From contig CAZFHY010000005.1 of NCBI GenBank assembly GCA_964519305.1, forward strand, positions 32,001-96,000: a stretch of DNA of 64,000 bases, read 5' to 3'. The DNA comes from Candidatus Undinarchaeota archaeon (GTDB taxonomy: Archaea; SpSt-1190; JASMDC01). Below, piece after piece: positions 2,137-18,259 of the stretch. The notes beneath the pieces were generated by a model. It was not told the origin of the DNA. It made no database searches and was given only the letters and a program-made list of their open reading frames with translations. Each line of letters opens with the position of its first letter. The stretch's first letter is position 1. The position numbers and the translations under genes are program-made.

Positions 2137-3771
2137 ATGCGGTCGCTGGGTGCCCTCTTGCTCGTATTCATTCTACTCGCTTCGGTACAGGCAGCTGAGC
2201 CGGTGATCAAGTACAGTGGAACATCCTTCGATGACAGCCTTTACACGGGAGAGACGAGCGTGATGGAGGTAAAGATCACCTCCACATACGACACCGGTAA
2301 CGCGCCCAGTGTGAACGTGATCCTGGACGCCGCTGAATCCGGTGGTAAGCTCAAGCTCTACCGGATCACGTCGCGCTCGTTCACCAAGCGCACCATCCCG
2401 TGCTCGGACGCCGCGTACAATCGTCACGAGAACTTGAACGTTGCGGTCACCAAGGGTCTAAACTCCTTCCTGTACGCCATTCAGCCATGCGAGAACGTTC
2501 TGCCCGGCACCTATGCCCTGGAGTTCAAGGTGGACGGTACGGCCGTTGTGGAAGAGATAACGGCCAAGGTGCAGTCCCCCGTACGGATATCTGTATCATC
2601 CGGTACCGTCAGACTGGGCGCTGCCAAGACCCTGACCGTCACCGTCGCCAATCGCGGGATCGAGCTCCTAGAGAACGTTGGGGTCGACTTCTCGAGCCCG
2701 CTGCCCGGAAAGATCACGATCAAGCCTACACGCATACGACTGGACGAGAACCTGCCCCTCAAGGCATCCACCAAGTTCGAGGTAACGGTGAACGCTACAC
2801 TTGACACACCCGCCGTTGAATACCCGCTCAACGTGTACACGTCGTACAGGACCTTCGAGACCGTTACCACGGTACGCGAACCCGTCCCCGATAAGAGCAT
2901 CACGGTGGTCCAGGGGGACAATCCCAAGCTGGAGCTGGCCGTACGGGACCCTGCCGACATCAACGTGGAGGATGCCCGGTTCGCCTCAGTGCTCGGGAAG
3001 GAGTTCAACGTGGCGTTCCCTCTCAAGAACACGGGGAACGGGCATGCAGAGAAGTGCACCGTGGAGCTCACCATGCCCCATGGTGTTTTCCTACCCGCCA
3101 ACGTCACACGGCCGTTCGAGTTCCGGGAGCTCGTCACCGAGGACGTGCTCGTCATCGACATGGGAACCCTGATAGGTGGGGACGAGGGGAACGTCGAGGT
3201 CATCTTCCTTCCCCTTCTGGTCGATACCACTCCTGAGGGCACCACCGAGGTCGACGTCCTGGCCCGGTGCCTGAACATGGCAGGGAAAGATATCACGAGC
3301 CGGAGCATGACCATGAAGGTCGACCTTGAGTTCCCGAAGCCGGTGTTCGAGCTGGGCACGAACGTACCGGACACGGTAATCGAGCCCGAGAGCTTCATAA
3401 CCGCAAAGGTCTCTCTTAAGACACTGGAAGCCCAGAAGTGCTCAGTCCGTGTGAAGTGGCCAATATACCTCCATTACATGGACACGCTGGGCAAGTTCCA
3501 GTGGAGCGCCAATCCCGAGGTGAACGGTACATACGAGAAGACGCTGCGGCTCAAGAGCTCCGCAGAGCATCGCTCGACGTCGGACCATGACATTCTGGTC
3601 ACCGCCACCTGCAAGAACAGTCTGGATGTGACCGCGTCCCAGGAACGACGGATCGCTCTCCAATACGTCTCGCCGGGGGGACAACAGGACATGATCGTCT
3701 ACGGCATCGTTGGACTGGGCGCCGTACTGGTCGTTCTCATCGTGCTCTTCCAGCTAACCAAGAATAGCTAG
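2137..3771 (+). CDS. Secreted, C-terminally anchored multi-Ig/CARDB-like surface (S-layer-type, COG1361-like) protein
   Basis: Sec signal (LLASVQA/AE); beta-rich repeats with 'VTVANRG' and 'LKNTGNG'; C-terminal TM helix. Confidence 0.65.
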   Translation: MRSLGALLLVFILLASVQAAEPVIKYSGTSFDDSLYTGETSVMEVKITSTYDTGNAPSVNVILDAAESGGKLKLYRITSRSFTKRTIPCSDAAYNRHENLNVAVTKGLNSFLYAIQPCENVLPGTYALEFKVDGTAVVEEITAKVQSPVRISVSSGTVRLGAAKTLTVTVANRGIELLENVGVDFSSPLPGKITIKPTRIRLDENLPLKASTKFEVTVNATLDTPAVEYPLNVYTSYRTFETVTTVREPVPDKSITVVQGDNPKLELAVRDPADINVEDARFASVLGKEFNVAFPLKNTGNGHAEKCTVELTMPHGVFLPANVTRPFEFRELVTEDVLVIDMGTLIGGDEGNVEVIFLPLLVDTTPEGTTEVDVLARCLNMAGKDITSRSMTMKVDLEFPKPVFELGTNVPDTVIEPESFITAKVSLKTLEAQKCSVRVKWPIYLHYMDTLGKFQWSANPEVNGTYEKTLRLKSSAEHRSTSDHDILVTATCKNSLDVTASQERRIALQYVSPGGQQDMIVYGIVGLGAVLVVLIVLFQLTKNS

Positions 3772-4404
3772 ACTGAATGGGTCCCCGAGCAGCAGGTTCG
3801 CGATCACCGACACAAGGAGGAACGGCGCCATCGGTATCCTTAGTTCCTGTCCCTCCAGCCTAAAGAGCATGAGGAGCGCAGTGGCCGCGGCGAAGAGCAC
3901 AGGGACCAGTGCGGTCGTGACATCACCGTGCAGGAGTAGGAAGAGCGCTGCCCCCAGGAGCATGCCCAAGGGAGCGTCCCGTCGGCGGAAGGTGGGCCGC
4001 TGTCCTTCGCGCACGACATGCCAGACGTACCATCCCATACCGACTACCTGAGCGAGGAGGACGGCGAGCACCAGCACCGCTACGGGGAAGGGAAGGATTG
4101 CAGGGAAACGTGTCGCCACACCATCGTGGACGAATCCCTGGGCCCTCAGTGGTGAGAGGAGGCAAAGGGCACAAACTAGCTTCACGTCGGCGCCGCCGAT
4201 GCACCGGGCCCGGTACCACAGGAACACTAGGCCGAGCACCAGGAGGTTCACGGAGAACTGGTCCGGGTCATGCCCGATAATCAGGTAAGCGATCGCGCCT
4301 ATGACCAGGAGCACGTCGGTGATGAGCGGATGCACCTCGCCAGTCCGCAGGTCGTCGAGGGAGGCCGCGGCCAGGCCGGCCACGAGCACGTACAGACGCC
4401 ACAC
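3754..4404 (-). CDS. Prepilin peptidase, A24 family (PibD/FlaK/EppA-type)
   Basis: 'ASLDDLRTGEV' and 'IGGADVKL' aspartate motifs, C-terminal 'PMAPFL'; GTG start 1 nt after the upstream stop; last gene of the pilin operon. Confidence 0.9.
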   Translation of the reverse strand: MWRLYVLVAGLAAASLDDLRTGEVHPLITDVLLVIGAIAYLIIGHDPDQFSVNLLVLGLVFLWYRARCIGGADVKLVCALCLLSPLRAQGFVHDGVATRFPAILPFPVAVLVLAVLLAQVVGMGWYVWHVVREGQRPTFRRRDAPLGMLLGAALFLLLHGDVTTALVPVLFAAATALLMLFRLEGQELRIPMAPFLLVSVIANLLLGDPFSLAILG

Positions 4405-4405
4405 G

Positions 4406-6667
4406 CTACTTCCACACCTCGAGGTTGAGCACGCCCACACCCCTGCCACCCCGGGGCGCTACGACACGGTTGACGGACACAATACCGTACTTTGCCTGGG
4501 TGGAAGATATGCAACCGAAGTCCGGGCTCTGGCAGTTGGCCAGTCCCTCGGGCGGTTCATCCTCCCCCTCCTGATCGGGGTTTGGATCGGTCATGAAGGG
4601 TTCGGCCTGATACTGTGGATTGAAGCAGAAGGTCTCACAACTCCCTTTGTCCTCGATATCGCGGATCACGCATACTGGAGGGATCGCCTCCGCGTCCCAC
4701 TCACCGCTGACTTCCTCGCCCTCGCAGAACGCCGAGTCCATCCCTATTGACGAGACAGCACACCGGCCGCCAGGGCCTTCACCGGGATCGTTCCAAACCC
4801 ACGCGGTCGTTAGGTGCTCACATGCTTGCAGATCTCCTGCGGCGAGCACGCACTCGTCGTTCACCCAGGTACCGCCCACGTCGGGATCCAGGCAGTCCAC
4901 GTCATTATCGATTCCAACGGCCACACATCGCGGATCGGGCTGGTCCTCGGTCCATTCCGTGTTGCCCGCGGCCTCGCAGGTCTGCTCGTCGGATATGAGC
5001 CAGATGAAGCAGTCCGGATCGTTCCAGACGCCGTTGATGTCCTCGCACGCTGCCTGGTCAGGCACTGCAGCAGGATCGGTCCGACAGAGCTCGGTAGGGA
5101 GCCATTCGGCATCCACGAGAGCACCCTCGCACGTTGTCTGATCAGGAACTATCGGGAGCAGGCACTCGCCCCGCTCGTCGTCCCAGAAGGTAAGGTACTG
5201 TCCTTGATCATCTCCCCAGAAGGTGGCCTCGCCATCGAAGGTCGAATCCGCCTGGACGACAAAACCGTAAGTGCGTGTGGGGATGTCCCCGGTGAACGTG
5301 TCCGTGTGCTGTAGAGCGAGACGGCAGTCGTTGGTAAGGATGAAATTGGCTACGATAGTGGCGCCGGGGAATGTATCCTCACCTTGTCTGAAGGTCGTGT
5401 ACGTGATAGTGGCAGTAGCACTGTTCGCGTCCTGTGTGGTGATGATTGTTGGTTCCTCGCCGGGCAGGCAGACGTTCCCTACATAGCAGTACACGGTGCC
5501 TGCCTGGCAAGCGACCGGGAGTTCGTGCTTGAACACGGGCCGCCACGTCGGGGTTCCGGGTGTAGCGGGATCGCTATCCACGTCGCCATCCGAAGCGACA
5601 TAATAATCGATAAAGCTGACGATACCACCGTCACACGCCGTTCCGGCATGGACGCGGAGCCTAGATTCCACTGTACCGCAGTCGGCCGTGTAGACCTCTG
5701 ACGTCCCGTCCATGGTCTGCTGGATAGAGCCTGCAGGGTGCTGGCCGCCCCCTACCGGGAAGCCGCGGTTGGAGGTCAGATACGTGGCTGCCGCTGCTCC
5801 GATTGTGTCGGAGGCAATATTGCTCTCATCAGGGATAATATCGAAGACGACGGTCCCGCTGTCGTATGTGTCCGGACAGTTACCTGCTTTACAGGCAACG
5901 ATCCCTATTTGGAGAGAGTCACCGTTAGCATCGACTTTCACCTGGGTGAGACCAAGAGCACCTGGCGTGTAATCATCCGCCGTCGTCACATGGAGGCACA
6001 TCCCCCCCGGATCCTCCCGGTTACATGTACCCGTCGAATGACCAGCTTCATTTATCTGGAATACCGCCGGATTCCTGAGAATTATCCTTGTCAGTTCATC
6101 ATCTTCGTAGTAGAAGCTGCCATCCATCTCACGATATCCTGCGGATAATATCCGACAATCATTCCCATTATCCGTCACCGGATCAGTGACAACGCATCGA
6201 GGGACAGGCGCGTCCTCGAACCATTGGGTATTGACGGGTAGAGTAATGTCCCGGTCCACACCCATGTCCTCGTCCTTGCACACGTACATGTTCACACGCC
6301 AGCCATAGCCCAGAGAACCCTCTGTACTCATCAGGCGCGAGAAGAATGTCGGCCCTACCAAAAAGGGAGCTAGTCCACCTGCCGCCTCGACATCGATAGC
6401 GTTCAACCGGTCGATGCCCATACCCTCGTCATAGTACGAAACACCGTACTGATAGCCGTTCGGTGTGGAGTCGACCATGGCGGTCATGAAGTCATCGGAG
6501 ACCATCTTGAGGTCATAAACCGTCTGCCACTCCACACGGTCCTTCTCCACTTCTGTTCCCATTCTTTCCATGGCCGTGAATAGCAGGCCGAAGATGGCAA
6601 GAGCTATGATTATGTCGATGGAGAATGTCTGGCCACGACGTCGCCCTCCGAGCTTCACGGCCCGCAC
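4406..6667 (-). CDS. Large Cys-rich type IV pilin-like protein (class III signal peptide)
   Basis: RRRG/QTFSIDIIIALAIFGLLF cleavage motif; C-terminal 'VNRVV...LNLEVWK' typical of archaeal minor pilins; internal C..GxW..C repeats. Confidence 0.8.
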   Translation of the reverse strand: MRAVKLGGRRRGQTFSIDIIIALAIFGLLFTAMERMGTEVEKDRVEWQTVYDLKMVSDDFMTAMVDSTPNGYQYGVSYYDEGMGIDRLNAIDVEAAGGLAPFLVGPTFFSRLMSTEGSLGYGWRVNMYVCKDEDMGVDRDITLPVNTQWFEDAPVPRCVVTDPVTDNGNDCRILSAGYREMDGSFYYEDDELTRIILRNPAVFQINEAGHSTGTCNREDPGGMCLHVTTADDYTPGALGLTQVKVDANGDSLQIGIVACKAGNCPDTYDSGTVVFDIIPDESNIASDTIGAAAATYLTSNRGFPVGGGQHPAGSIQQTMDGTSEVYTADCGTVESRLRVHAGTACDGGIVSFIDYYVASDGDVDSDPATPGTPTWRPVFKHELPVACQAGTVYCYVGNVCLPGEEPTIITTQDANSATATITYTTFRQGEDTFPGATIVANFILTNDCRLALQHTDTFTGDIPTRTYGFVVQADSTFDGEATFWGDDQGQYLTFWDDERGECLLPIVPDQTTCEGALVDAEWLPTELCRTDPAAVPDQAACEDINGVWNDPDCFIWLISDEQTCEAAGNTEWTEDQPDPRCVAVGIDNDVDCLDPDVGGTWVNDECVLAAGDLQACEHLTTAWVWNDPGEGPGGRCAVSSIGMDSAFCEGEEVSGEWDAEAIPPVCVIRDIEDKGSCETFCFNPQYQAEPFMTDPNPDQEGEDEPPEGLANCQSPDFGCISSTQAKYGIVSVNRVVAPRGGRGVGVLNLEVWK

Positions 6668-7131
6668 CTCCAGTCCTGAGTGTCAATGCACAGATGCATG
6701 GTCTTCCCTATGCAACGCATTCGGAGGCTCCGCTCATATACGATCTTGTTCGACGATGGACGGAAGTGGAGCGGGGCATAGGCCTCGTAAGGTCCGAAGT
6801 ACTGCATCTTCGTGTCGTACACTACATGCACGTAGAAGCGGACCGGCCCGATCTCCGCCTCCCGCAACTCGTAGGTGTACATGGAACCGTCACAAGTGAT
6901 GGTCTTGTTGAGCCGCCCTATTGCGAAGTACGGGTTCATGGCGGCAGCCACGCGCTCCGCCTCATCGACAGCGCGCTGCTCGAGGGTCTCCTCACGACGA
7001 TCGTTCCGATGACCCATGAACTGAGCGGCGAGCGCACTGATGAGCACCATATAGATGGCGAAGATGGTCATGAGCTCCAGCGCCACCTGGCCACGACATG
7101 ACCTGAGATCGCGTCCCCTAATCATCTTCAT
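6655..7131 (-). CDS. Minor type IV pilin (class III signal peptide)
   Basis: CRG/QVALELMTIFAIYMVLI; overlaps both neighbours; GGAGG upstream (start may be 7125). Confidence 0.8.
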   Translation of the reverse strand: MKMIRGRDLRSCRGQVALELMTIFAIYMVLISALAAQFMGHRNDRREETLEQRAVDEAERVAAAMNPYFAIGRLNKTITCDGSMYTYELREAEIGPVRFYVHVVYDTKMQYFGPYEAYAPLHFRPSSNKIVYERSLRMRCIGKTMHLCIDTQDWRCGP

Positions 7132-7660
7132 CCTCCTGGGGTACGCCACCTTCTGCGAATAACCGCACACGCCCGTGACGACATTGCACCTTGAGCTGGA
7201 CTGATCCGCAGATTAGGTTGCCGCAGGTGACCTCCATCTTATATCGCTCCGCGGGCTCATCCTTCCATTCTCCCACGGACGATGCACTGAAATGTCGCCC
7301 ATTGACATAGGCAGAACCGGTCGGCGGTGCCGGATCGAACTGGGAGCGAGGTACCTCCACCTCTATCCCCTGCACCCGCCCGCTGCCGAAATCCTCTTCA
7401 CGGTAGCGGACGGTGATATGGCGCGACCATGTATAGACCTGGAGGTGCTCGGTGTTGTGTGAACCACCGTCACAAGCGTGCTCCAGAGAGAATGCGAGCT
7501 TGTTCGCGATGATCTGCGCCCGCTTTGCTGAGTTCCGGTCCGCAAGGCGCTGGTTCTCCATCTTGGCCGTGAACAGAAGCATGGAGAACATCACGAGCAC
7601 CGCTGACATGAGCGCAAGTGTCTCGAGAGGGACCTGACCCCGCCTCACGCGCGCTGTCAT
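7118..7660 (-). CDS. Minor type IV pilin (class III signal peptide)
   Basis: MTARVRRG/QVPLETLALMSAVLVMF; GGAGGTG RBS; ATGA overlap with the upstream gene. Confidence 0.8.
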   Translation of the reverse strand: MTARVRRGQVPLETLALMSAVLVMFSMLLFTAKMENQRLADRNSAKRAQIIANKLAFSLEHACDGGSHNTEHLQVYTWSRHITVRYREEDFGSGRVQGIEVEVPRSQFDPAPPTGSAYVNGRHFSASSVGEWKDEPAERYKMEVTCGNLICGSVQLKVQCRHGRVRLFAEGGVPQEDEDD

Positions 7661-10542
7661 GTCGCACCTCCCGCAATCTTGCTCACTACGACCATACCCT
7701 GACCTGACTGCCCTGAGGTAATGGGGAGGCTCTGACACCTCACACCGATGGTACCCATCCCCTTGAACACGAGATCGAAGGGCTCGGTCCGTTCCATAAA
7801 GGTGATGGGGACAACTGACGATGCCAAAGGATCATATGCATCGAACCGCTTGAATCCTTTCTCACGACGTACTTCAACAAGAGAGTCCTGGCCGATGTCA
7901 AGGTCTATCGTCTCGAAGATCTCCTCTCCTATGTAGAACTGGTACTCGGTCCCTGTACCCCATTCAGTCGCAGGGAACAGGACGCTTTTACTTAGACCCG
8001 CACCGATAGGGGCCTTAAACCGTGCGTTCCAACCGTCAGCGTTGCCCCCGGTCTCACATGTGTTCTGATTCAGCCGGCTGAGGATATAGCAGGCCCCCGC
8101 TCCAGCATTGGCATCCGGATCCCAGAAGCCGTCACCCTTGGTGCATAGGCGTTCGCTGTTCAGGGAAGGATATATGCAGCGTGGCGGATCGTCCGCCGGC
8201 CACACTCCGTTGGCGGTGCAGGCCCAGAGGGACCGGTCCCCGGTCAGGACATCTGTAGGCGTCTTGCACGTACCGTCATCCGACACGACCGTGAGCACCT
8301 GCTCGTCCCTGTTGACGAAGGAGGTCCGTCGCAGTTCCCTGGGACTGTTGAGCTGCTCGGCGCCGAGCATGACTTGGCTGAAGACCGTGCTAACAGTCAG
8401 GATCACGTTCTCATCATCACCAAGACGGAACTTGTATGTCCCGGGATGCGGGAAAGGCACCTCGACCACATCGTCCGGTTCGAGGTCCAGAGAGAGTACC
8501 GGGGCCCACATCACGTTCTCATCTTCCTCGATGACGCATAGGTCCTGAGTTACCCGAAGATTATCAATACAGCCCTGCTCGTCATGCCAGTGGTAGTAAC
8601 CATCCTGCGTCCAAGTCCCGCTGGCCGACCCACATGCATCCCGGGTGAACTCACAGCTATCAGTGAAGCTATACCATGTCCCATCGGCATCCTCGCACGT
8701 CGTCGGAGTTAGCACGCATCCTAGCAGTTCCTCCCACTTGCCTCCGATGTCCTTGCACGTCTCCTCGATGAACGTGCACGAGCCGGGACCTACCTCGCAC
8801 TCCTCTTGTGAGCCCACGTCGGAGAGCGTGCAGAAATCGATGGGGAGACCCTGATCGTCCTGCGGATCGTTCCACTCACCGTTGAGTGAGCAGAGGCTCT
8901 CAGCGGTGTCTACTTCGTTGGAGCATCCATACTCCTCGGATACTACGGATGCTGACGTCACGTCGGGATTGCGGAAGACGATGACGCCGCCCACGGGTAG
9001 ATCGAGGACCGATGTTGGATCGAACATCAAAGGATGGACATCGACGTCGCGGGTATCCACATATACCTCGAGCACGTCGTCAGGAACGACATCGGGATCG
9101 CCTGCGATACTGAAGCGGTGGACGCCCGATACTGTGAAGGTCACCACGTCGCTGTCCACTCCACATGTTAGTATTTCCTCGTTCCATGCACCATCAACGT
9201 CCTCACAGTCATCGGAGGACAGGATAGCTGCAAGAACTGGGTTCTTTGGGAGGTAGATGCGGTCGTACTCGGAAACCCACCCTCCGTCGTCGCGCTCGCA
9301 GACCTCACGAGAGACAGCACGCTCGGCGATATGACAACCGGCACCGTTCACTTCTTCTCCACCACTGTCCGTGCACAGGTCGGTCACATCGCATGTGGCC
9401 GTACCGGCGTCCCACGAACCAGCGGTTCCTATGAGCACATCGCAGGCATCCTCGGTGCCTATATCAGCGAAGAACACGCACAGGTCCACGCCATCGGCCC
9501 CTGCGCCAGGTCTGTACCGTCCTGCACGGTCACGGACAAGCGCGGGATCGCCCGCCCCGCAACGGTCCTGGCTCACGGCACGATGGGGCAGGTTGCACAC
9601 GGTTCCATCGTCACCGAGGTCTACGATCTCCCCACCCACGGCCACGCACGGAACGCGGATATTGCACATGGGCTCATCGCCTTCGACCCACTCCCCGCCC
9701 ATGGTCTCGCACGATTCCTGCGTATCGAGACCGTCGAAGAACACGCACAGGTTACCGGCTTCGCCCGCTTGCATGTAAGTCCCCTGGAGCCCGCACATGG
9801 GCTCGCTGTCGCCGTAGTCGCTTGAACACTTGCCACTTTCGGACACGATCCTGATGCCGCAGGAGCCGCTCTCGTCATGCCAGGCACCCCCTGCATCACG
9901 ACAGGCAACCGGCGTCATATCGCAGCCGCCGAGATCGTTGTTCCACACACCATGCCCATTCCCACACCCTGTCCGGGCAAGCTCGCATGTGTTATCAGCC
10001 TCTGTCCATGTGCCGCCCGCGGCACGACACTCGTCCTCAGCGAGGGTGCAGTCCAAAGGATCCCCCTCCCAGGCACCGCCTGCGACAAGGCATGCACGCT
10101 CGGCGAGCTCGCAGACACCGTCTGCACCGTTCCACGTTCCCCCCGCGCCAACCTCGCACGCCGCTTCGGTATCAAGGTCGGCGAACCAGTCGTGGCTCTC
10201 GATGATGACACGGTCGTTCAAAGATAGATCCGTGATCCGTGCTGGCCAGAACCCTTCACGCAGTAGCTGGACATTTCGTACCTTGGCCGTTGCGTGTATG
10301 CGTGTATATGGAGCCGCGGGGACCTTCACTTGGACCATGTCGGGGGTCGCTGGTTCACACACGGTCTCGATCGCCGAAGCGAGCTCGTACCCCATGGCGG
10401 TCATCTTCTTCTCGTCTGCGAGGCGGTCGAAGGAGATGTACTTGAGCTGTGCCTGATAGAGCACGTAGCCGAACACCATGAATATGGCAGTGGCAAGGAC
10501 CATGAACTCCAGTGCGACCTGACCTCGGAAGCGCCTCCTCAC
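7657..10542 (-). CDS. Giant (~961 aa) pilin-like adhesin with about 20 Cys/Trp repeats and two cupredoxin-like domains
   Basis: GTG start in a GTGA overlap with GAGGTG RBS; RFRG/QVALEFMVLATAIF class III signal; tandem C-x-x-x-GGxW-x(n)-C repeats. Confidence 0.8.
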   Translation of the reverse strand: MRRRFRGQVALEFMVLATAIFMVFGYVLYQAQLKYISFDRLADEKKMTAMGYELASAIETVCEPATPDMVQVKVPAAPYTRIHATAKVRNVQLLREGFWPARITDLSLNDRVIIESHDWFADLDTEAACEVGAGGTWNGADGVCELAERACLVAGGAWEGDPLDCTLAEDECRAAGGTWTEADNTCELARTGCGNGHGVWNNDLGGCDMTPVACRDAGGAWHDESGSCGIRIVSESGKCSSDYGDSEPMCGLQGTYMQAGEAGNLCVFFDGLDTQESCETMGGEWVEGDEPMCNIRVPCVAVGGEIVDLGDDGTVCNLPHRAVSQDRCGAGDPALVRDRAGRYRPGAGADGVDLCVFFADIGTEDACDVLIGTAGSWDAGTATCDVTDLCTDSGGEEVNGAGCHIAERAVSREVCERDDGGWVSEYDRIYLPKNPVLAAILSSDDCEDVDGAWNEEILTCGVDSDVVTFTVSGVHRFSIAGDPDVVPDDVLEVYVDTRDVDVHPLMFDPTSVLDLPVGGVIVFRNPDVTSASVVSEEYGCSNEVDTAESLCSLNGEWNDPQDDQGLPIDFCTLSDVGSQEECEVGPGSCTFIEETCKDIGGKWEELLGCVLTPTTCEDADGTWYSFTDSCEFTRDACGSASGTWTQDGYYHWHDEQGCIDNLRVTQDLCVIEEDENVMWAPVLSLDLEPDDVVEVPFPHPGTYKFRLGDDENVILTVSTVFSQVMLGAEQLNSPRELRRTSFVNRDEQVLTVVSDDGTCKTPTDVLTGDRSLWACTANGVWPADDPPRCIYPSLNSERLCTKGDGFWDPDANAGAGACYILSRLNQNTCETGGNADGWNARFKAPIGAGLSKSVLFPATEWGTGTEYQFYIGEEIFETIDLDIGQDSLVEVRREKGFKRFDAYDPLASSVVPITFMERTEPFDLVFKGMGTIGVRCQSLPITSGQSGQGMVVVSKIAGGAT

Positions 10543-12233
10543 GGACAGCACCTCTTTCCGTTGCATGTGCGCATAGCGCGCCTGATGAGCGGGTATGCCC
10601 GCAGTACGCGCAGGAGACACTCGTCGTCGTCGGGACACCTTGTGAGGACCTGATACCCGGAATCGATATACGCATCGTCCGTGGCCCATTTGTGCATGAT
10701 GCTGGTGAAATTGTGGATGCCCCGCTGGTCCGGGAGGTCCTCGGCCAGTACCTGGGCAAGAGTTATTATGCTCCCGTCGGCCAGGTTGACATCGTGGTAG
10801 TCCGTAGGATAGAAATCTGTGGCTTCCATACGGCAGGCGATATTGTAGAAGGCCCATACGTCGAAATCAGCGAGATGATAGTCGCACGCAGTCTCTCCCG
10901 ATGACTGGTACTCATCGCCCACTCCCAGATGGACGGGAAGCTTCGTCACCATGTTACCATCCTCGTCAAGGAGCTCCATCTCACCGTCGTACATGGCCGT
11001 GGGTAGAAGGCTGCTCAGTCCGCTCTCCACGATGGTCTGGGAGGTGCATCGGGAGCGCATGACGACGCCCTCTGCTGCGGCGAACGTGTCGGGGTCGTTA
11101 CCGTCGATATCCGGGGAGTAAACGCATGGATAGCAGGTGTCGACGGGGTATATCTCGTCGTAATCGTTCCTACCGGGCGAACACGCTCCGCAGGGTGTTC
11201 CTTCTGCCTCCTCTGGCTCCTGGACTCCGCTGTAGAGACCGTACCAGCTCTGAGGATAGGTGCGTCCCGTATCCTCGTCCACAGCGAAGAAACCATCGAT
11301 GTACTCGTCATGGTCAGGGTCCGTGTACCGCGAGCATGTGTTGCTTATATGGACCCCGAACGTCCGGCGAAGGATATCCCGCGGGTCCGGTGGTTCTGCT
11401 CCTTCTTCAGCTTCCCCCCCATCGAGCTCACAGAACTCCTCGAAGGAATGGCCTCGAGGTATACCATATGGGCCGAGCGTCGTATGGTCACTGAGCACGC
11501 ACATCCCGAGCTCCACTGCTGCACAGAGCGACCGGGCAGGACCGCAGGCCTTCCCCGCCTCCCGTGCGTACGTGGCGAGGTTCTGCATGTCCACCGCATA
11601 GTCGAGGTTGACGTCCGGCAGCTCCATATCACAGCACCCGAGGTTGTACCCCGTCTGGATAATGAAGGTACCGAACTGCTCGATATCGATCTCTTCAAGT
11701 GTGAGCACGGGCTCGGGATCGGTCTCGGGCGGTGGTGGATCGCCCGGTTCGGTAGGTGCTGCAGCGTCGTCGGATGGTTCGAACCGTAGCCTCAGCCGCG
11801 ACATGGTCCTGAGACGAGCGGCCATCTTACCCTTCCAATCGTCATCACCGGGACCATCGATCAAGGGGGGATATTGGGCACGGACGGCTCCGATGACGGG
11901 CGAGTTTTGACTGGGACAGTTCGTCCCAGTATTCATGAGATCAAATCGATTATTGAGCATGAGTTGCAGGTCCACGATACTGTGGCCGAAGAGCTCGCCA
12001 GGCACTCCGCTCCAAGCACCGACAGCAGCATATCCGCCATCGACGAGCCCTATCTCGAGGGCGGTCTTGTGATACCGGAGGAGATTGATGGCAGCGCGCT
12101 CTTCAAGGTCGATGGTGGCCCGCGCCGAGCGTGCCTGGTTGATCGTAGCTACTTCCAGGACACCGTACGCGATGACGATGAATATAGCCAGAGATATGAA
12201 CCCCTGCTGCTCACGTCGGTCTACTCGCGCCAT
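10539..12233 (-). CDS. Large acidic Cys-rich pilin-like protein (probable class III signal peptide)
   Basis: MARVDRREQQG/FISLAIFIVIAYGVL; translationally coupled within the operon. Confidence 0.7.
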   Translation of the reverse strand: MARVDRREQQGFISLAIFIVIAYGVLEVATINQARSARATIDLEERAAINLLRYHKTALEIGLVDGGYAAVGAWSGVPGELFGHSIVDLQLMLNNRFDLMNTGTNCPSQNSPVIGAVRAQYPPLIDGPGDDDWKGKMAARLRTMSRLRLRFEPSDDAAAPTEPGDPPPPETDPEPVLTLEEIDIEQFGTFIIQTGYNLGCCDMELPDVNLDYAVDMQNLATYAREAGKACGPARSLCAAVELGMCVLSDHTTLGPYGIPRGHSFEEFCELDGGEAEEGAEPPDPRDILRRTFGVHISNTCSRYTDPDHDEYIDGFFAVDEDTGRTYPQSWYGLYSGVQEPEEAEGTPCGACSPGRNDYDEIYPVDTCYPCVYSPDIDGNDPDTFAAAEGVVMRSRCTSQTIVESGLSSLLPTAMYDGEMELLDEDGNMVTKLPVHLGVGDEYQSSGETACDYHLADFDVWAFYNIACRMEATDFYPTDYHDVNLADGSIITLAQVLAEDLPDQRGIHNFTSIMHKWATDDAYIDSGYQVLTRCPDDDECLLRVLRAYPLIRRAMRTCNGKRCCP

Positions 12234-13522
12234 ACGCACACCTTCACCGTGACGATCTGCGGACAAGCCAGGGGTTGGACCTGTGGTGAATCGAGGGCTT
12301 CACCGCAACTGTTCCGGTCCAGATTGAGCCCGCACAGCATCACCTCTCGCTCCACACAGTACACGGTCCTTGGGGGTATTTGCTCAGGGATGTGGCAGGA
12401 GCAGAAGAAGCCGAAAGGATTGTCGCAGTCGTTACTGGGATCGTCATCGTACCTACTGTTGTCGAAGCATCGTCGGAACTTGATGAACCGGGAAGGATCG
12501 TCATCGTCAGTGATATCATTAATGCCATTAGGCAGGTTGAGTACGGTATCGATTATGTCCCTAGAGTGGTCCGCTATACTCTCTGCGCCTTCCAACGCTT
12601 CTCTTACAGTGCGCGCAGCATAGGTACGGGGTGTCGGCGGATTCGCCTCGGGAGGATCCTTCTCGGGAGGGAACACCTCGGGGAAGAGCTTTGGCAATAG
12701 CCGATCCAGCTCGCGGTCCTCGGCCATCTGGTCAGGCGTCGCTAGTTCAGGATTGTCCGCGAAAAAGTTGATACCATAGGTGCTCACATACCTGATGGTG
12801 GGATCCTCGGCGTCCTCGTTGATACTCTGTTCGAACCGTCCGAGGCTGGGCGGGTCCATGCGCCATTCGGTGGCGTAGCCCAGGGGGGGATCTGGTGTAC
12901 AGTCATCACTGGTCGTGATGGTCATGAGAACGCATTCTCCTTCACCGGCGTCCCACGCGGCACCGTTGGCGTCGTAGGGTGGGACCTCGCAGGTCCCAAG
13001 ATCGATCACGTCCGCTTCCGTGACCACGCATCGCGGATTCGGGTCCTCAATCTCAACGAGGTCCTGGCGGGCATAGCCGAGGTACTGCTGGAACGCACCT
13101 GCCCGTGCGTCATCGATCTCTCCTGCATCGATGGCCTCGCGATTGGACTCGTACCACGCAGCGTAGCTCATACCGCCAGCACCGTCGTCCACCGCATCCG
13201 GCAGCAACCCCAGTAGCCACGGGTCCTCGTACTGAATATAGAACCGATACGCCGGGTACATACCGGCGATCGTGTCCAGTGCCATGCTCCCGCAGCTGCG
13301 TTCGGGCGGGAACGCGAATGGGCAGCTCTGGACATGCTCGGCCGACTGGCTGCAGGCGTTGATTATGTCATGGGCAAGACGCTGGGCGTTGAGCGCCTCT
13401 GCGTTGGGATAAGGAAAGTGATGGACCGCGACCGACGATAGGATGAGCACCGATAGCGTCATGGTGAGAAGGGCGTCCATCGTGAATATGAATCCCGCAC
13501 GCTCACGTCGCTCCACGTTCAC
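12221..13522 (-). CDS. Pilin-like protein (class III signal peptide) with a Cys/Trp module
   Basis: RRERAG/FIFTMDALLTMTLSVLIL; C-terminal 'VTVKVCVWRE'; GTGA overlap. Confidence 0.8.
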   Translation of the reverse strand: MNVERRERAGFIFTMDALLTMTLSVLILSSVAVHHFPYPNAEALNAQRLAHDIINACSQSAEHVQSCPFAFPPERSCGSMALDTIAGMYPAYRFYIQYEDPWLLGLLPDAVDDGAGGMSYAAWYESNREAIDAGEIDDARAGAFQQYLGYARQDLVEIEDPNPRCVVTEADVIDLGTCEVPPYDANGAAWDAGEGECVLMTITTSDDCTPDPPLGYATEWRMDPPSLGRFEQSINEDAEDPTIRYVSTYGINFFADNPELATPDQMAEDRELDRLLPKLFPEVFPPEKDPPEANPPTPRTYAARTVREALEGAESIADHSRDIIDTVLNLPNGINDITDDDDPSRFIKFRRCFDNSRYDDDPSNDCDNPFGFFCSCHIPEQIPPRTVYCVEREVMLCGLNLDRNSCGEALDSPQVQPLACPQIVTVKVCVWRE

Positions 13523-16500
13523 TCTTCCTCCTCCTCCTCTTCAGGAATGGGTACTATCAGAGCGCTGTCCAGCTCCTCCAGCGTTGGTGGTGGGTCCACA
13601 GGCGTAAGACAGGATGTGAAGCCGATGGAGTTGAAGAAATTATTACATAAGGAGGTCGAGATCGGCTCACGGACGGTGCAGTACGTCTCCATGTTCTCGC
13701 GCATGGAGATAGCCAGGTCCGCCAGCGGTGCGAAGCTGTTCTCGCCGTCCTCGTACGAGCACTCGAGCTCTGCTTGTGTCATGGGCGGGTATAGAGCACG
13801 TAGCAGGTAGTTGTCCTGATCTATACCGCACTGTGCGAGGTTCTCTGTGATCTCGCACTGGTCATCCTCATCAGGCGCCGGGTATGTGATAAGGTCATTA
13901 AAGAACACGTCCAGATCGCGTCCGAGACAGACGTTCTCCTCGCAGTCGCCGTGACCGGGAAGGGTGGCGAAGGTGGCGCACTCCTTTACGTTGTTGCACT
14001 CGCTCCCGGCCCGCTTCCCTAAGGCGCACCAGTGCGTGTTGACACCAGCAGTGGGATCGGGCTCTTCAGGGTTCAGGCAATAATAGGGTGTGGGGAACGA
14101 GCCGTCGTTGATGGCGGTCGCGTACTGGTCAGCGAGCCAGTAGCAGCAGTCATTGGCCGGCAGCTCGGACGTCGGCGCATCAGGATCATCACTACATATC
14201 ATCAGGTCCGATACGGTCCCCGTCAGATCATCGAACACCAGATCCCAGCCATCACCTAGAGCGTAGAGGATGGTCACCTTGCTGAGCGCCGATGTGTCGA
14301 TCGTTAAATCACAATCTCTAGAGGCCTGGTCCAGTTCGACGTTGCAATAATCGATTGCGTTAGGGAACCATCCGTCTGTGAGAGACAATGAGACACCGTC
14401 CTCGGTGCAGATGTCGCGGTCCCCGTTGTCGCAGACCACATCACCGTCATATACGGCAATGAACGAGTGGTAATCCCTGTCGATGGCCGGTTCGGACGTG
14501 ATCGTTGCTGTTAATTGGAATGAATTCGTGTTAGTGACATCGAACTCCTTTACAGCGACACCGGTCCACTGGGCCGACATATGCTCGCACTTCAATCGTA
14601 TCTCTGACCTTATTGCCAGGTTGCCCCAGGAGTTGCAGGGATAGGAAGCATCGGCACCGAAGTAGACATCGAAATCCGTCAGGTCAGGATAGGAGCAACC
14701 CTCAACGCCCACGCTGTCGCAGCATGAGAAGGGCGGGGGCTGTACCATGTGGCCCTCGCAAATGGCGGTCTCGTCACAGTCCTCCGCGGGCAGGAACAGG
14801 GCGTGAGTGCATCCCTGGAAGCAGTTATCTGCAAGGTCGTCAAGGTCCCGGCATTGCGTATCGGGGCAATCGGACCCGGGACAGTCCGGATCGAAGCAGT
14901 CGGTGGCCACGCAGTCGGCGTTCGGGTCGTCCAGGTCATCAGTGAGACTGAACACACGACAGAACTTGCAATGATCCGCCTCCGAGCCGGGACAGCACAT
15001 CCCCAGATCGAGGTCGATGCACATGGATGATCCATCGCACTGATGGGTCCGGTTCCCTTCGTCCCCCCACCGCTCAGCAAGTTCCTGCTGGAACAGACTG
15101 TCGTCTATCGAGTCCGGTGCCCATGGATCGTTCACGGGATCGGGCGCCATGGCGTTCATCTCATCTGAGTAAGGAGCGCGAATGACATATGGCAGGTCAG
15201 TTTCCTGGCACGCGTAGACACGGGGAAGCTCGTCCTCGTCGGTCCCGAGGATCGTCCGCGTCACGATTTCCAGGGTCTCAAGGAACTCAGTAGCACAGCA
15301 CTGGCCGTCCTCACCCGGGAGCCCGTCATCGATCTCCTCGGCGATGAGCGTGGCATTGAGATTCACGTAATACGATTCTTTCTGAGCCCGGTACGTTGGG
15401 TCCAGAGGGTCCCCTCCTGCGTCAGCAAGGACCTGAAGGGTGACGTCCTCGAACTCCTGTGGATGGACGCAGGAATACCACGCTCCGCCCATGCAGTAGT
15501 GGTAGCGATAATCACGGTCATCGTTCCATCCAAAACCCGGTGGGTCCTCGTCTATGCGGCCATCGCCATCGTCATCTACATCGTTGTCGGGGTCCTCATC
15601 GTAGAGCGGGAATATCGCGGTCCCCGCGAGCGTGTCTTGGACGCCATTGGCCCCATCGCTCAGGACCTCTTCTGTCCCATCATAAAGTCCGTTATCCCCG
15701 TCATCGGTGGCGAATATCTCGTCCACGCCAGGATCGAAAACTTCTGCCGTCCCCCCTGGTTCGTCTCCGAAGTAATCGGTATCTGCGGGACCGAACACGT
15801 CCGCTATGTTCTGCGTGAGCGTCGTGTCCGGGAGGCACATGGGCAGCGGATCGCCGAACCACTCCACATCGAAAGCGAGCCCGGCGCAGTCATCCTCGAC
15901 AATAATCCCCGGGACCACGCAGTGCAGGAAGCCTGCATCCCACTGGCCATCGTAGGGTGCGCTCTCACAGGTCTCCCGGTCCTCGACGGCCTCGGTGTCC
16001 GCGAGGATGCAGCGGGGATCGGGGTCCGCGCACGTGAACTGTAGCAGCCGGAGATGGTCGGGATCGGTATAGGCGTCCAGAGAACTGTTCCACGAGCAGC
16101 GGGAGAACCCACCACATCCCACGTCTTGTCGATCGCATGTCGCGGTATGTGCATCGGCATCGTAATTGCATCGCTGGACGCGCCACACGCTGTTCTCCTC
16201 CGCGTCCAGCCGGCACCGGTCGCAGTTCTTGCTGAACGTATCAGCACCCTCAGCGTCAAGCATTACGCGACATTCATCGAGATCGTCGGGATCGTTGTCA
16301 GGATCGTTGCATGCGTAGTGCCACTGAGCATCCTCCAAACACTCGTCCTCGACCTCTAGGTCCTCAGGGAGCGGGAGGGGCTCGTCCGAGCAAACGACGG
16401 AGCCCGAGGCCATTTCGACATCACATCGTGCGTCCCGGGCAACGCCGCTGATAGAGCAGTACTGACAGGTAATACCGCCGTTCTCGCCCTCCAAGTCTTC

Positions 16501-17655
16501 GATGCATGCATTCTCGATGGCCGGGGCACCGGGAGGCGGTCCTAGAGCCGGTGGATCACCGGACTCGACGAGATAGCACTGGGTCTCGGGTGCAACAATT
16601 TCCGGTAGCGGATCGCAGGTGATAGGGTCGCCGTACGCAGCGGGCATCACGCACCTGCGAGTCTCGCCAACAGCGAATCGCGCGTTATCTACATCGTTGA
16701 TGCAGCGTGAGCACTGGATGGATCCGCCGTCCTGCGAACCGCACTGGAAGGTAGTCTGTCCTTCGGCGAGCTCGGGGAGGCAGTCGCCCGATTCCGCTGA
16801 TTCGTCACAAGTAGCCTGACCGTCCTGCCTCGTGCAACCCGAGGTCACGATACTACCATCGCTCTCGCAGAACTCACAGTTGATGTCTTCGGCGTTAGTT
16901 GCGTCACATGCCGCTTCCAGCGGTGCGTTCCCGGAGTAGCATGAGTCGGTGGATTGCTGGCACTTGTGCAGGTTGCCATTGCACCGGGCCTGCACTGCTT
17001 CCACGCCTTCATCGACGCTGCACAGGTCACAGTAGACTATGTTGTTATCAACGTCCACCTGACAGGGATTCGCGTCCGGATTGCAGTCCTTCTGCAGCTC
17101 CCCGACCGCCGTGAATACCTTACCTGTGACATCGGACACCAGACAAGTGTCCGCCATCAGCTTGCCTGTCACGTCGCAGTAAAAGCAAAGCCGCTTGTCC
17201 TCGTCCCCGCCGCTACAGGCCACGGCCGCGTCAACGGGGCCGGTGTAGTACTGCACCTGGTCCTCGATGCACTGGCGGGCCTGAGCATCGCACCTGCGCC
17301 GCTGGACAGCACCTGTATCCAGGCACGCCTCCTCGCAGTAGGCGCTCCCAGTGCCCGAGTCCCGCTTGCACGATTCCGCGAATCCGCAGTCGGTCGTGAC
17401 GGGTGGTGAACAGCCACACGTGCCATCACCCTCGTTTATGACACAATCCCATTCATTGAGGACACCGTCCAGCGTGCATCCCGCACAGGTGATCGGTGGG
17501 CCGACGTCGTAGTCACAGGTTACGGGATTACCGTCGACCAGCTGGATAGTGTTCCCCTGACCGAGAACGCATGCCGCGCTGGCAGGTGTGAGGATAATCA
17601 GAAATAGTAGAAGTAGGGTGATGACTGGCGAATCTCGCACGCCATCACCCTTCAT
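13519..17655 (-). CDS. Giant (~1380 aa) Sec-secreted, extremely Cys- and Asp/Glu-rich protein; putative adhesin or pilus-associated scaffold
   Basis: Signal peptide VITLLLLFLIILTPASA/AC (start 17655, or GTG 17640); very high Cys density; DxDxDG motif; poly-E tail; no C-terminal TM. Confidence 0.75.
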   Translation of the reverse strand: MKGDGVRDSPVITLLLLFLIILTPASAACVLGQGNTIQLVDGNPVTCDYDVGPPITCAGCTLDGVLNEWDCVINEGDGTCGCSPPVTTDCGFAESCKRDSGTGSAYCEEACLDTGAVQRRRCDAQARQCIEDQVQYYTGPVDAAVACSGGDEDKRLCFYCDVTGKLMADTCLVSDVTGKVFTAVGELQKDCNPDANPCQVDVDNNIVYCDLCSVDEGVEAVQARCNGNLHKCQQSTDSCYSGNAPLEAACDATNAEDINCEFCESDGSIVTSGCTRQDGQATCDESAESGDCLPELAEGQTTFQCGSQDGGSIQCSRCINDVDNARFAVGETRRCVMPAAYGDPITCDPLPEIVAPETQCYLVESGDPPALGPPPGAPAIENACIEDLEGENGGITCQYCSISGVARDARCDVEMASGSVVCSDEPLPLPEDLEVEDECLEDAQWHYACNDPDNDPDDLDECRVMLDAEGADTFSKNCDRCRLDAEENSVWRVQRCNYDADAHTATCDRQDVGCGGFSRCSWNSSLDAYTDPDHLRLLQFTCADPDPRCILADTEAVEDRETCESAPYDGQWDAGFLHCVVPGIIVEDDCAGLAFDVEWFGDPLPMCLPDTTLTQNIADVFGPADTDYFGDEPGGTAEVFDPGVDEIFATDDGDNGLYDGTEEVLSDGANGVQDTLAGTAIFPLYDEDPDNDVDDDGDGRIDEDPPGFGWNDDRDYRYHYCMGGAWYSCVHPQEFEDVTLQVLADAGGDPLDPTYRAQKESYYVNLNATLIAEEIDDGLPGEDGQCCATEFLETLEIVTRTILGTDEDELPRVYACQETDLPYVIRAPYSDEMNAMAPDPVNDPWAPDSIDDSLFQQELAERWGDEGNRTHQCDGSSMCIDLDLGMCCPGSEADHCKFCRVFSLTDDLDDPNADCVATDCFDPDCPGSDCPDTQCRDLDDLADNCFQGCTHALFLPAEDCDETAICEGHMVQPPPFSCCDSVGVEGCSYPDLTDFDVYFGADASYPCNSWGNLAIRSEIRLKCEHMSAQWTGVAVKEFDVTNTNSFQLTATITSEPAIDRDYHSFIAVYDGDVVCDNGDRDICTEDGVSLSLTDGWFPNAIDYCNVELDQASRDCDLTIDTSALSKVTILYALGDGWDLVFDDLTGTVSDLMICSDDPDAPTSELPANDCCYWLADQYATAINDGSFPTPYYCLNPEEPDPTAGVNTHWCALGKRAGSECNNVKECATFATLPGHGDCEENVCLGRDLDVFFNDLITYPAPDEDDQCEITENLAQCGIDQDNYLLRALYPPMTQAELECSYEDGENSFAPLADLAISMRENMETYCTVREPISTSLCNNFFNSIGFTSCLTPVDPPPTLEELDSALIVPIPEEEEEEE

Positions 17656-17668
17656 ACGTACAGCCCGA

Positions 17669-18259
17669 TCAACACGACGGCATACGCTGGGCGGCAGCAT
17701 TACCCATGATGATGTTCGGTCTGCCTCCCGTGTAGTCGAAGGAGATGTACAACGTGGTACACTGGGGACCCATAGTGCCGCCGGAGTCATGGGCGTGGCA
17801 CTCTCCATCCTGGAGGTTCGTGTAGTCGTCGGCAATATTATCCGGCTCCGTCTGGGTCTGGATCTGGAATCCTAGGGTCTCGGCACCGTCGGCAGCTATC
17901 TTACCGGCCAGGCCGTTGGGCGGGTCACCGCCACCCTGATCGAACAGGTCGTCGTCGCAGGAAGTGGGCATAGGGATCGTGAAGCAGGTGAAATCCCTAC
18001 CCAGCCCCTTACCGCGTGCCACGCACTGCCGGATGGCCCGGTCAATATCATCCGCGCACCCGAAGGCCGGGTCCACAGCGTACTGCTCGGACTGGGGCAG
18101 TGAACGGAGGCAGAGCCACCGCTTCATCTGGAACGCGACGAAGGCCGCGATCGCTAGACCTGCAGTTGCGATAATGAGGTACTCGAGCGGGATGGCACCA
18201 CGCTCATCGCTGGCCATCCTCCTGAGAAGCAACTTCTTGTTCAATTTGTACTTTCTCAT
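17669..18259 (-). CDS. Type IV pilin, first gene of the operon (candidate major pilin)
   Basis: MRKYKLNKKLLLRRMASDERG/AIPLEYLIIATAGLAIAAFVAF; six Cys in the head domain. Confidence 0.8.
   Translation of the reverse strand: MRKYKLNKKLLLRRMASDERGAIPLEYLIIATAGLAIAAFVAFQMKRWLCLRSLPQSEQYAVDPAFGCADDIDRAIRQCVARGKGLGRDFTCFTIPMPTSCDDDLFDQGGGDPPNGLAGKIAADGAETLGFQIQTQTEPDNIADDYTNLQDGECHAHDSGGTMGPQCTTLYISFDYTGGRPNIIMGNAAAQRMPSC

Follow-up and report, generated by a model that had tools for sequence, protein, structure and literature searches.

A conserved archaeal operon of giant cysteine-rich, class III signal-type proteins with a minimal prepilin peptidase: a candidate accessory set of a type IV pilus-like filament

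Several described systems offer points of comparison for the operon reported here. In the Epd pilus of Methanococcus maripaludis, the pilins are described as cleaved at the sites KGQV, KGQL, KGQI and RAQI, with Gln at +1 and Glu at +5 (PMC4371748), and the origin of the Tad system is placed in an Epd-like system of archaea (PMC6668835). Modular pilins, which bear a grafted functional module thought to lie at the filament tip, are portrayed as widespread and very diverse, the largest of the bacterial IPR012902 proteins in the survey's account being 860 amino acids (aa) long; the same source describes a non-pilin protein of type IVa pili that is presented at the tip through minor pilins (PMC8179133). 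In the Thermoproteales, the account of type IV pilus (T4P) loci gives nearly all components multiple conserved cysteines, and includes a large protein, putatively an adhesin or minor pilin, and another that is S-layer-like and anchored by its C-terminus (Makarova et al. 2016, PMC4858521). We analysed a 64,000-nucleotide (nt) stretch of DNA, here called the window (C5:32001-96000), from the genome of an archaeon filed under Candidatus Undinarchaeota (assembly GCA_964519305.1; G000). Within it, nine genes (A to I) form an operon encoding seven proteins with class III-type N-termini, a large Sec-exported partner and a prepilin peptidase. The best reading of this operon is as the accessory set of a type IV pilus-like filament, not as a whole machine. 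We put at roughly 55% the probability that it comprises minor pilins, modular pilins and a non-pilin adhesin, with a minimal peptidase of its own and a platform encoded elsewhere.

Nine coupled genes, their N-termini and their peptidase

Nine co-directional open reading frames (ORFs) occupy window positions 3754-18259 on the minus strand, in the order A to I from 18259 down to 3754. A preliminary description of this DNA had called them tightly coupled, and they are, with overlaps of 4-14 nt or gaps of 1-13 nt (A>B +13, B>C -4, C>D -13, D>E -4, E>F -4, F>G -14, G>H -13 and H>I +1 nt). It had also listed a Sec-exported protein of about 1380 aa, four pilin-like proteins of 433-961 aa and an A24 peptidase, which we recovered as B (1378 aa), as C, D, H and E (433, 564, 753 and 961 aa) and as I, which scores over the Pfam cut-off and has both Asp motifs. 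Start positions were set from the translations, from database gene calls and from the sister genome (G001). For gene A we took the upstream ATG, since the internal Met is replaced by Ile in one homologue; gene C begins at a GTG at position 13522.

Gene A, 17669-18259, minus strand: 196 aa, prepilin-like; leader MRKYKLNKKLLLRRMASDERG, mature start AIPLEYLII; 175 mature residues; 8 Cys
Gene B, 13519-17655, minus strand: 1378 aa, non-pilin; Sec-type signal; 100 mature Cys
Gene C, 12221-13522, minus strand: 433 aa, prepilin-like; MNVERRERAG/FIFTMDALL; 16 Cys
Gene D, 10539-12233, minus strand: 564 aa, prepilin-like; MARVDRREQQG/FISLAIFIVIAYGVLE; 20 Cys
Gene E, 7657-10542, minus strand: 961 aa, modular prepilin-like; MRRRFRG/QVALEFMVL; 46 Cys
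Gene F, 7118-7660, minus strand: 180 aa, small prepilin-like; MTARVRRG/QVPLETLAL; 4 Cys
Gene G, 6655-7131, minus strand: 158 aa, small prepilin-like; MKMIRGRDLRSCRG/QVALELMTI; 4 Cys in the mature part
Gene H, 4406-6667, minus strand: 753 aa, modular prepilin-like; MRAVKLGGRRRG/QTFSIDIII; 30 Cys
Gene I, 3754-4404, minus strand: 216 aa, minimal A24 prepilin peptidase; LDDLRTGE and GGADVKL

The seven class III-type proteins (A and C-H) share a leader of 7-21 aa with three to eight Lys or Arg, a Gly at -1 in every case, and a single N-terminal hydrophobic window of about 20 residues that directly follows the predicted cleavage site. The junctions read SDERG/AIPLEYLII in A, RERAG/FIFTMDALL in C, REQQG/FISLAIFIV in D, MRRRFRG/QVALEFMVL in E, RVRRG/QVPLETLAL in F, RSCRG/QVALELMTI in G and GRRRG/QTFSIDIII in H. 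All four motifs quoted in the preliminary description (RG/QVALEF in E, RG/QTFSID in H, AG/FIFTMD in C and RG/AIPLEY in A) are thus in the sequence, alongside RG/QVALEL in G, RG/QVPLET in F and QG/FISLAI in D. Arg occupies -2 in five of the seven, the exceptions being C (Ala) and D (Gln). Gln at +1 and Glu at +5 (A, E, F and G) each occur in four; three proteins have both (E, F and G), H has the Gln only, A the Glu only, and C and D neither. C and H carry Asp at +6, and D has no acidic residue at +5 or +6. The +5 acidic residue is described as missing in many archaeal pilins (PMC4371748).

These N-termini are concentrated in the operon. Under a strict class III rule, 35 unique ORFs qualify in the 3.63-megabase (Mb) genome, four of them in the 14.5-kilobase (kb) operon against 0.14 expected (Poisson P 1.4e-5). 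A permissive rule selects 218 of 13,858 ORFs genome-wide, six of them in the operon against 0.87 expected (P 2.9e-4). Both rules are our own approximations, distinct from FlaFind. The requirement for a 21-residue hydrophobic stretch was passed by six of the seven proteins; in D, 16 hydrophobic residues are followed by Glu, and because of this Glu at +17 it fails the permissive rule. The cut-offs of the curated pilin models PF04021 and PF07963 (N_methyl) were reached by none of the seven, so the case for class III signals is made from the N-terminal features. The class III assignment of the preliminary description accordingly stands as regards the Gly border, the basic leader and the hydrophobic stretch, present in all seven, and does not extend to membership by PF04021. 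Among the operon proteins, Pfam Flp, TadE and TadG found no match, and A touched DUF4244 at E 0.047, under the cut-off. A Tat signal was considered for E and H, which have RRR runs, and was rejected by reasoning: no AxA site follows the hydrophobic stretch, and disulfide-rich proteins would make poor Tat cargo.

Peptidase I matches Pfam PF01478 (Peptidase_A24) at 31.6 bits (E 2.3e-7) and 31.9 bits against a cut-off of 26.5, and its Asp motifs LDDLRTGE and GGADVKL align with those of the three other A24 peptidases of the genome. Of the four, the two long ones (421 and 389 aa) have Arc_PepC, the archaeal C-terminal domain. That domain is absent from I (216 aa, about seven segments by a crude hydropathy count) and from its 32% identical paralogue of 214 aa on contig C15, both of them bare A24 cores. 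In build, I is closer to the minimal peptidases of Tad systems (TadV). EppA is described as a much larger peptidase with nine transmembrane (TM) segments (PMC4858521, PMC4371748); small and consisting of the A24 core only, I is therefore not of the EppA type. The likeness to EppA-type pilus loci put forward in the preliminary description is not supported in that form: I does not have the EppA form, only three of the seven proteins combine +1 Gln with +5 Glu, and a family elsewhere in the genome, the QAAMEFLMTYGW-type proteins, provides better EppA-type candidates than the operon proteins.

The N-terminus of this family, R[AG]/QAAMEFLMTYGW..VIAGA, is nearly fixed and occurs on proteins of 90-1760 aa, encoded at C14:58742-65955, C20:24542-29905, C6:9606-17253, C10:58933-60363 and other loci. 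The 389-aa A24 peptidase, at C5:1400-2569, may serve them. The gene for the 214-aa protein, the closest paralogue of I, stands in a row with four others (C15:18504-25310; locus L026 6504-13310). One of these encodes a CetZ/tubulin-family protein (Tubulin E 4.9e-23, CetZ_C 2.6e-6) and another a 425-aa protein that matches T2SSF weakly; the remaining two are for a signal-peptide peptidase of the presenilin type and a PrsW-type protease.

Cysteine-rich modules, conservation and rarity

B, C, D, E and H contain 3.5-7.3% Cys and 16.4-20.6% Asp plus Glu, with isoelectric points (pI) of 4.05-4.32. In a rough background set of 911 ORFs from 7 contigs, Cys has a median of 1.3% and a 95th percentile of 5.0%, and Asp plus Glu a median of 13.5% and a 95th percentile of 18.3%. 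The description of the four large pilin-like proteins as packed with Cys, Asp and Glu thus holds, and B shares the trait, but it is found genome-wide in secreted proteins: a count over 1.2 Mb gave more than 25 further proteins that are 400 aa or longer and contain at least 3.5% Cys, the largest reaching 5255 aa. Giant size and Cys richness are therefore a genome-wide style and not a mark of this operon. Many of these other proteins are 1200-5255 aa long with Sec-type signals and 6-13% Cys (contigs C2-C8); examples lie at C2:14170-29937, C3:171692-180232, C4:88615-96021, C6:40292-47788 and C7:59340-78565.

The mature forms contain 228 Cys in total (A 8, B 100, C 16, D 20, E 46, F 4, G 4 and H 30). 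The count is even in all eight proteins, and again in all eight of the sister genome. In E, 46 of 46 Cys are invariant across four sequences, the most distant of which is 38% identical (BLAST); in A, 8 of 8 are invariant across five. Judged from these sequence patterns, the large proteins are very probably disulfide-bonded, in agreement with the disulfide richness claimed at the outset. Only five N-X-S/T sequons occur in about 3970 mature residues, and so few are unusual among archaeal pilins. A search of the genome for a VKOR homologue found none; other disulfide-forming families were not searched.

Some of the proteins share parts. B starts MKGDGVRDSPVITLLLLFLIILTPASA/AC, with a Sec-type signal (LIILTPASA/AC) that would leave a mature form of 1351 residues (7.3% Cys, 20.6% Asp plus Glu, pI 4.05). 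Its residues 568-693 resemble residues 109-258 of C (27% over 151 aa, E 1.4e-5), and H and C also have related parts (E 1e-4). The first ~115 residues of E align with F, which the E profile matches at E 9.6e-6. Given that the N-terminus of E is homologous to F, E can be described as an F-like module plus about 840 residues, that is, a modular-pilin architecture. The extension opens with five tandem 21-residue units of the form C-x2-AGG-x-W-x5-6-C, followed by further Cys-rich parts. E has 10 copies of this motif against 0.56 in shuffled sequences, and H has three, in its C-terminal third, against 0.29. Self-BLAST for internal repeats gave no off-diagonal match, and the repeats are shown by these motif counts.

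The repeat is not confined to Archaea. Among 1.84 billion representative proteins, the E profile has partial matches, in the repeat region only, to 17 other proteins. Ten of the 17 were scanned with Pfam, and five of these have the bacterial prepilin N-methylation motif at E <= 0.01, two of the five reaching the cut-off. Their N-termini read GFTLVE, GFSLIE and GFTLIE, and two are named by their source as a prepilin-type protein and a PulG pseudopilin. Since the repeats of E occur on bacterial pseudopilin-type proteins, this Cys-hairpin repeat is borne by pilin-type proteins in both domains. C-x2-AGG-x-W-x5-6-C repeats on pilins are an undescribed repeat family with no Pfam model. The bacterial pseudopilin-type proteins P0006, P0009, P0010, P0018 and P0022, 388-726 aa long, consist largely of such hairpins.

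A diverged paralogous module lies on another contig (C35, 8.7 kb; locus L029; positions 916-8401, minus strand), which ends just upstream of it. It encodes a 295-aa paralogue of C (RG/FIFTLDAL, E 6e-11), a 745-aa protein with a weak, N-terminal-only likeness to D (RG/FLSVIAFIMMV, E 0.004) and a third protein of 1465 aa. This one is secreted and rich in Cys, and combines a WD40 beta-propeller (E 1.5e-19) with an anchor at its C-terminus. Homology between this last protein and B was considered and not established; the likeness is a 32-column motif only, with an hhalign probability of 5.6%.

We compared the operon with the sister genome, the only other species genome of the same order, in which the entire operon and its convergent neighbour are syntenic. 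Amino-acid identities are 97% for A, 80-92% for B (with indels), 79% for C, 82% for D, 76% for E, 83% for F, 84% for G, 82% for H, 91% for I and 87% for the 544-aa neighbour. Pairwise ratios of non-synonymous to synonymous change (dN/dS) are 0.028 for A, 0.126 for B, 0.151 for C, 0.136 for D, 0.068 for F, 0.101 for G, 0.128 for H and 0.082 for I; for all nine genes they lie at 0.03-0.15, indicating purifying selection. Among 5.8 billion clustered proteins there are four clusters of relatives each for E (100, 76, 67 and 38% identity), B (100, 73, 79 and 40%) and A (98, 84, 73 and 65%). A is the most conserved protein of the operon, with homologues at 65-98% compared with 38-76% for E and 40-79% for B, and the N-terminal 90 aa of its homologues are almost invariant. 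Such conservation fits a core subunit.

Beyond these relatives the families are very rare. Searched against the 1.84 billion representatives, the E profile brings up relatives over the full length in just two clusters, one of them its own, and a single fragment besides. Scans with it for further loci gave one relative among 27 pattern matches in the set genome_contigs and one among 117 in metagenome_contigs, both like the sister genome. Across the phylum, E, A and peptidase I, each used as a query, were found in two of 17 genomes, those of the host and the sister species. Pfam and NCBIfam hold no family for A-H at E <= 0.1 except one noise hit for G. Sequence searches of the PDB were empty for B, H, D and the E profile, gave nothing at E <= 10 for a profile of the E/F module, and returned for peptidase I only a chance hit (E 0.6); the ESM Atlas had no usable match for E or B. 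A literature search for cysteine-rich, disulfide-bearing or giant archaeal class III or type IV pilin proteins found none described. Taken together, the sequence comparisons support the view that the nine genes are real, conserved and of very rare families with no described relative.

A proposed accessory pilin set and its alternatives

The host genome has seven matches to T2SSE (six over the cut-off) and eight to T2SSF (seven over), none on contig C5, to which the window belongs. The preliminary description was therefore right that no ATPase or TadC gene lies in the window; the finding that it said would count against it, a genome without any such gene, is not what we see, as T4P ATPases and TadC-type platforms are encoded elsewhere. 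At three loci (contigs C18, C12 and C1) an ATPase gene is accompanied by two adjacent single-domain platform genes. The C12 locus encodes a 429-aa ATPase and platform proteins of 311 and 336 aa, with no pilin or peptidase gene beside them; the C18 locus has pilin-like genes of its own.

We infer the cleavage, the polymerisation, the platform used, the role of each protein and the ligand as follows. The seven class III-type proteins would be inserted in the membrane, where I would cut after the leader-ending Gly, so that the mature protein begins with a hydrophobic helix. Extraction and polymerisation of the pilin-like proteins would then fall to a secretion ATPase and a split platform of the TadB/TadC type, both encoded elsewhere, and the C12 locus, having no pilin gene of its own, would be the obvious candidate for the motor. 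A, with its 175 mature residues and nearly invariant N-terminal half, could form the core of the filament or its repeating unit, with F and G as small minor pilins. The modular pilins would be C, D, E and H; their bulky, disulfide-stapled acidic modules should find room only at the tip or close to it. B is no pilin; exported by Sec, it might be held by the complex as PilY1 is by bacterial minor pilins. The likely job would be adhesion to particles or other cells in sea water. A bolder version, improbable in our view, is a surface structure unlike any so far seen: a thin core of A bearing the four giant modular pilins and mature B, along the filament or at its end, as a bottle-brush or grappling organelle with its own peptidase and a borrowed Tad/Epd-like motor, holding particles or partner cells.

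The claim of an undescribed surface appendage, with which the preliminary description began, is in this light overstated. The families have no described relative, but minor pilins, modular pilins and a non-pilin protein together are a known T4P theme, and both large class III proteins and giant Cys-rich secreted ones are common in the genome.

Several observations weigh against an accessory pilin set. C, D and H deviate from the Epd pattern, D having neither an acidic residue near +5 nor more than 16 hydrophobic residues. The Pfam class III signal model (PF04021, Class_IIIsignal) stays below its cut-off of 23.7 bits for E (16.2) and G (11.3 bits, E 0.36) and gives no match for the other five N-termini (A, C, D, F and H). 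Three of three clear class III proteins encoded elsewhere in the genome likewise remain under that cut-off, and because these controls do so the model appears insensitive here. The signal of B fits what we take to be a loose lipobox pattern as well as it fits a signal peptidase I site, and a lipid anchor would keep B at the membrane; its even Cys count (100, counting the Cys at +1) is slightly in favour of plain cleavage. The part of C5 examined (1-62 kb) contains neither an ATPase nor a platform gene, and with no motor gene near the operon its link to any machine is therefore only an assumption. The evidence for conservation comes from one genus and from database proteins of two or three further lineages. 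Finally, A, with 175 mature residues, is not the short major pilin that is described as typical of Epd and Tad (PMC6668835).

The alternative that survives best is a surface complex with no long filament, to which we assign a minor but real share of the probability. Here the cut proteins would stay as a membrane-rooted stub or raft (compare the bindosome proposal for Sulfolobus) and present the Cys-rich modules and B as a coat, binding platform or pad. This draws on the same N-terminal and peptidase evidence as the accessory pilin set, and would suit a locus that has no ATPase or platform gene, in which four of the seven proteins are too bulky for a filament body, and beside which a 544-aa membrane-anchored protein has been kept. 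Class III signals on proteins outside pili are on record (PMC4371748), and the many other large class III proteins of this genome, together with some 20 paralogues near 600 aa in length, of which several are encoded beside giant secreted proteins, suggest the signal as a general surface anchor. What a mere coat leaves unaccounted for is an N-terminal half of A that is invariant across lineages, as a polymerising helix would be, together with the small proteins of the F and G type, which would have no obvious role in it, and the occurrence of the E repeats on bacterial pseudopilin-type proteins.

The operon is one of many class III loci in this genome, others being those for the QAAMEFLMTYGW type, the ~20 paralogues of about 600 aa, small RG/Q..P-type proteins and PilA-type pilins. 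The paralogues are 575-695 aa long with a class III-like start, R[RG][GA]/Q[MIV][AST]L[IMF][GA]L, and several adjoin a giant Cys-rich secreted protein (C7:57535-59343 beside C7:59376-65840, C2:106009-107784 beside C2:101424-106004, and C3:50602-52407 beside C3:52404-57620), in what looks like a repeated two-gene cassette.

We consider it quite improbable that the hydrophobic stretches are the uncut signal anchors of type II membrane proteins, I having other substrates or another role. The Pfam class III model reaches its cut-off for none of the seven, the permissive rule also catches many plain membrane proteins (218 of 13,858 ORFs), and C and D have no basic residue at -2, all as this would predict. 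Against it, a Gly stands exactly at the border of leader and hydrophobic stretch in seven of seven, four of the proteins have a Glu at +5 inside that stretch, where a plain anchor would not usually have one, the peptidase gene is separated from H by only 1 nt and is conserved with the operon, and the class III rules find significant clustering here. The least credible alternative is a type II secretion-like pseudopilus, a piston driving B, or else other Cys-rich giants, across the envelope: the E repeats do occur on bacterial pseudopilin-type proteins, one of which its source names PulG, the gene for B lies within the pilin set and the genome exports many giant proteins, yet to our knowledge no type II secretion system is known in archaea, an archaeon without an outer membrane needs no piston, B has its own Sec-type signal, and bulky modular pilins are unlike pseudopilus subunits.

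Genomic setting and relation to known systems

Two further features adjoin the operon.

Convergent neighbour, 2137-3771, plus strand: 544 aa; Sec signal at the N-terminus, membrane anchor at the C-terminus; shares the last 18 nt of its 3' end with gene I
TATA-like A/T-rich box, 18281-18288, minus strand: ATAAAAAG on the coding strand; its end is 21 nt upstream of the gene A ATG; kept in the sister genome

The neighbour adjoins the operon in the sister genome too, and has weak matches only (NPCBM_assoc at 24.2 bits against a cut-off of 24.4, choice_anch_D at E 0.0023). From its position, the TATA-like box would yield a leaderless or near-leaderless operon transcript. The flanking genes are unrelated; upstream, a TnpB gene is followed by genes for CBS, DUF2122 and AllH/FdrA-like/AllG proteins. 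GC content by codon position shows a coding pattern, and third-position GC (GC3) is 0.66-0.76 in the operon and 0.70-0.77 in its neighbours. Horizontal acquisition of the operon was considered; with a GC3 like that of the neighbours, there is no compositional sign of it.

The TnpB gene (18313-19617, minus strand; OrfB_IS605 E 2e-27, Cas12f1-like TNB E 2.7e-25) is the sole gene of an IS200/IS605-type element of 1.49 kb (window 18297-19788). The element is inserted next to ...gcgccTTAC, 37 nt upstream of the gene A ATG and 9 nt from the TATA-like box, in the same orientation as the operon. It is not in the sister genome, whose flanks are contiguous at this point, and it may alter or drive transcription of the operon. 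Farther upstream, at 20896-24862 (plus strand), AllH, an FdrA-like protein with a CoA-ligase fold and AllG are encoded in a row, as subunits of oxamate carbamoyltransferase; these gene assignments point to purine or allantoin breakdown in the host archaeon. A solitary gene for a PilA-type archaeal pilin (27630-28376, plus strand; RSKRG/VTPVIAIILLLMM, 248 aa) lies about 9 kb upstream of the operon. This pilin has no Pfam match, and a twin with a near-identical N-terminus is encoded at C11:109364-110050.

The organism is an uncultured archaeon of oxygen-poor marine waters; the operon stretch is present in eight DNA runs, all marine or seawater metagenomes from two studies, and no RNA run is listed. 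Its genome (3.63 Mb, about 60% GC) is 99.8% complete. The genome of the sister species is 3.8 Mb, and sizes of 0.6-1.2 Mb are found in the remaining 15 species genomes of the phylum. The published account of Undinarchaeota gives 0.37-0.98 Mbp and 38-43% GC (PMC7414124), and a literature search found no description of a large-genome lineage filed there. The host is thus either a large-genome lineage inside or beside this phylum of the DPANN group, or a misplacement.

If the proposed reading is true, the idea of modular pilins extends to Archaea at an unreported scale, with four pilins of 433-961 aa, a 1378-aa partner and 228 cysteines among them and their companions. It would also link the pilin-borne Cys-hairpin repeats of Archaea and Bacteria, and so point to an old or exchanged adhesive module. 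A minimal in-operon peptidase with a paralogue in the same genome makes a clean test case for how peptidases are matched to their substrate sets. Filed in a phylum otherwise known for symbiont-like genomes of 0.4-1.2 Mb, the host, at 3.6 Mb and 60% GC, encodes unusually many class III proteins and giant Cys-rich secreted proteins, and the biology of its surface could help to explain attachment to partners or particles in lineages of this sort.

Comparison with described systems places the operon between several of them. Like Epd (EpdA-E and EppA of M. maripaludis), it is archaeal and sets several pilin genes beside a dedicated second peptidase. Epd sites are of the type [KR]G/Q[VIL], and E, F and G read RG/QV..E; the host ATPase loci with two split platform genes have what is described as a hallmark of Epd and Tad (PMC6668835). 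However, EppA is larger, with nine TM segments, and I (216 aa) is the A24 core only; four of the seven operon proteins depart from the rule of Gln at +1 and Glu at +5; the locus has no ATPase or platform gene; and its proteins, up to 961 aa with 46 Cys, bear no sequence relation to a described family.

With Tad/Flp systems the operon shares a minimal prepilin peptidase lacking extra domains (TadV in Tad), a G/xxxxE[YF] motif (G/AIPLEY in A, G/QVALEF in E) and the adjacency of small and large pseudopilin-like proteins, as with TadE, TadF and TadG. It differs in that A is far longer than Flp and that the locus has no secretin, TadZ or ATPase. The type IVa tip complex (FimU-PilVWXE with PilY1/PilC) is similar in that one operon encodes several minor pilins and a large Sec-exported non-pilin protein. 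D, moreover, is without an acidic residue at +5, as are GspK and PilX, the pilins nearest the tip. B has no PilY1 beta-propeller and no Pfam or NCBIfam family at E <= 0.1, so that it resembles PilY1 in role only; there is no homology to bacterial minor pilins, and the operon, unlike the type IVa set, carries its own peptidase.

E follows the plan of modular pilins such as PilB and PilC of Streptococcus sanguinis, CofB/TcpB, ComZ and GspK, a pilin-type module with a bulky extension, and its repeats occur on bacterial proteins of this class. Unlike them it is archaeal and 961 aa long, it is one of four such proteins in a single operon, and the modules match no known domain. The Thermoproteales loci offer a likeness by description, with no sequence relation found: the 544-aa neighbour has a C-terminal anchor like that of their S-layer-like protein, but those loci include an ATPase and TadC, and here the scale is larger, with 228 Cys in eight proteins. 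On the best reading, therefore, the operon works like an Epd/Tad-type set of minor pilins to which modular pilins and a PilY1-like partner have been added, and is not an EppA system in the strict sense.

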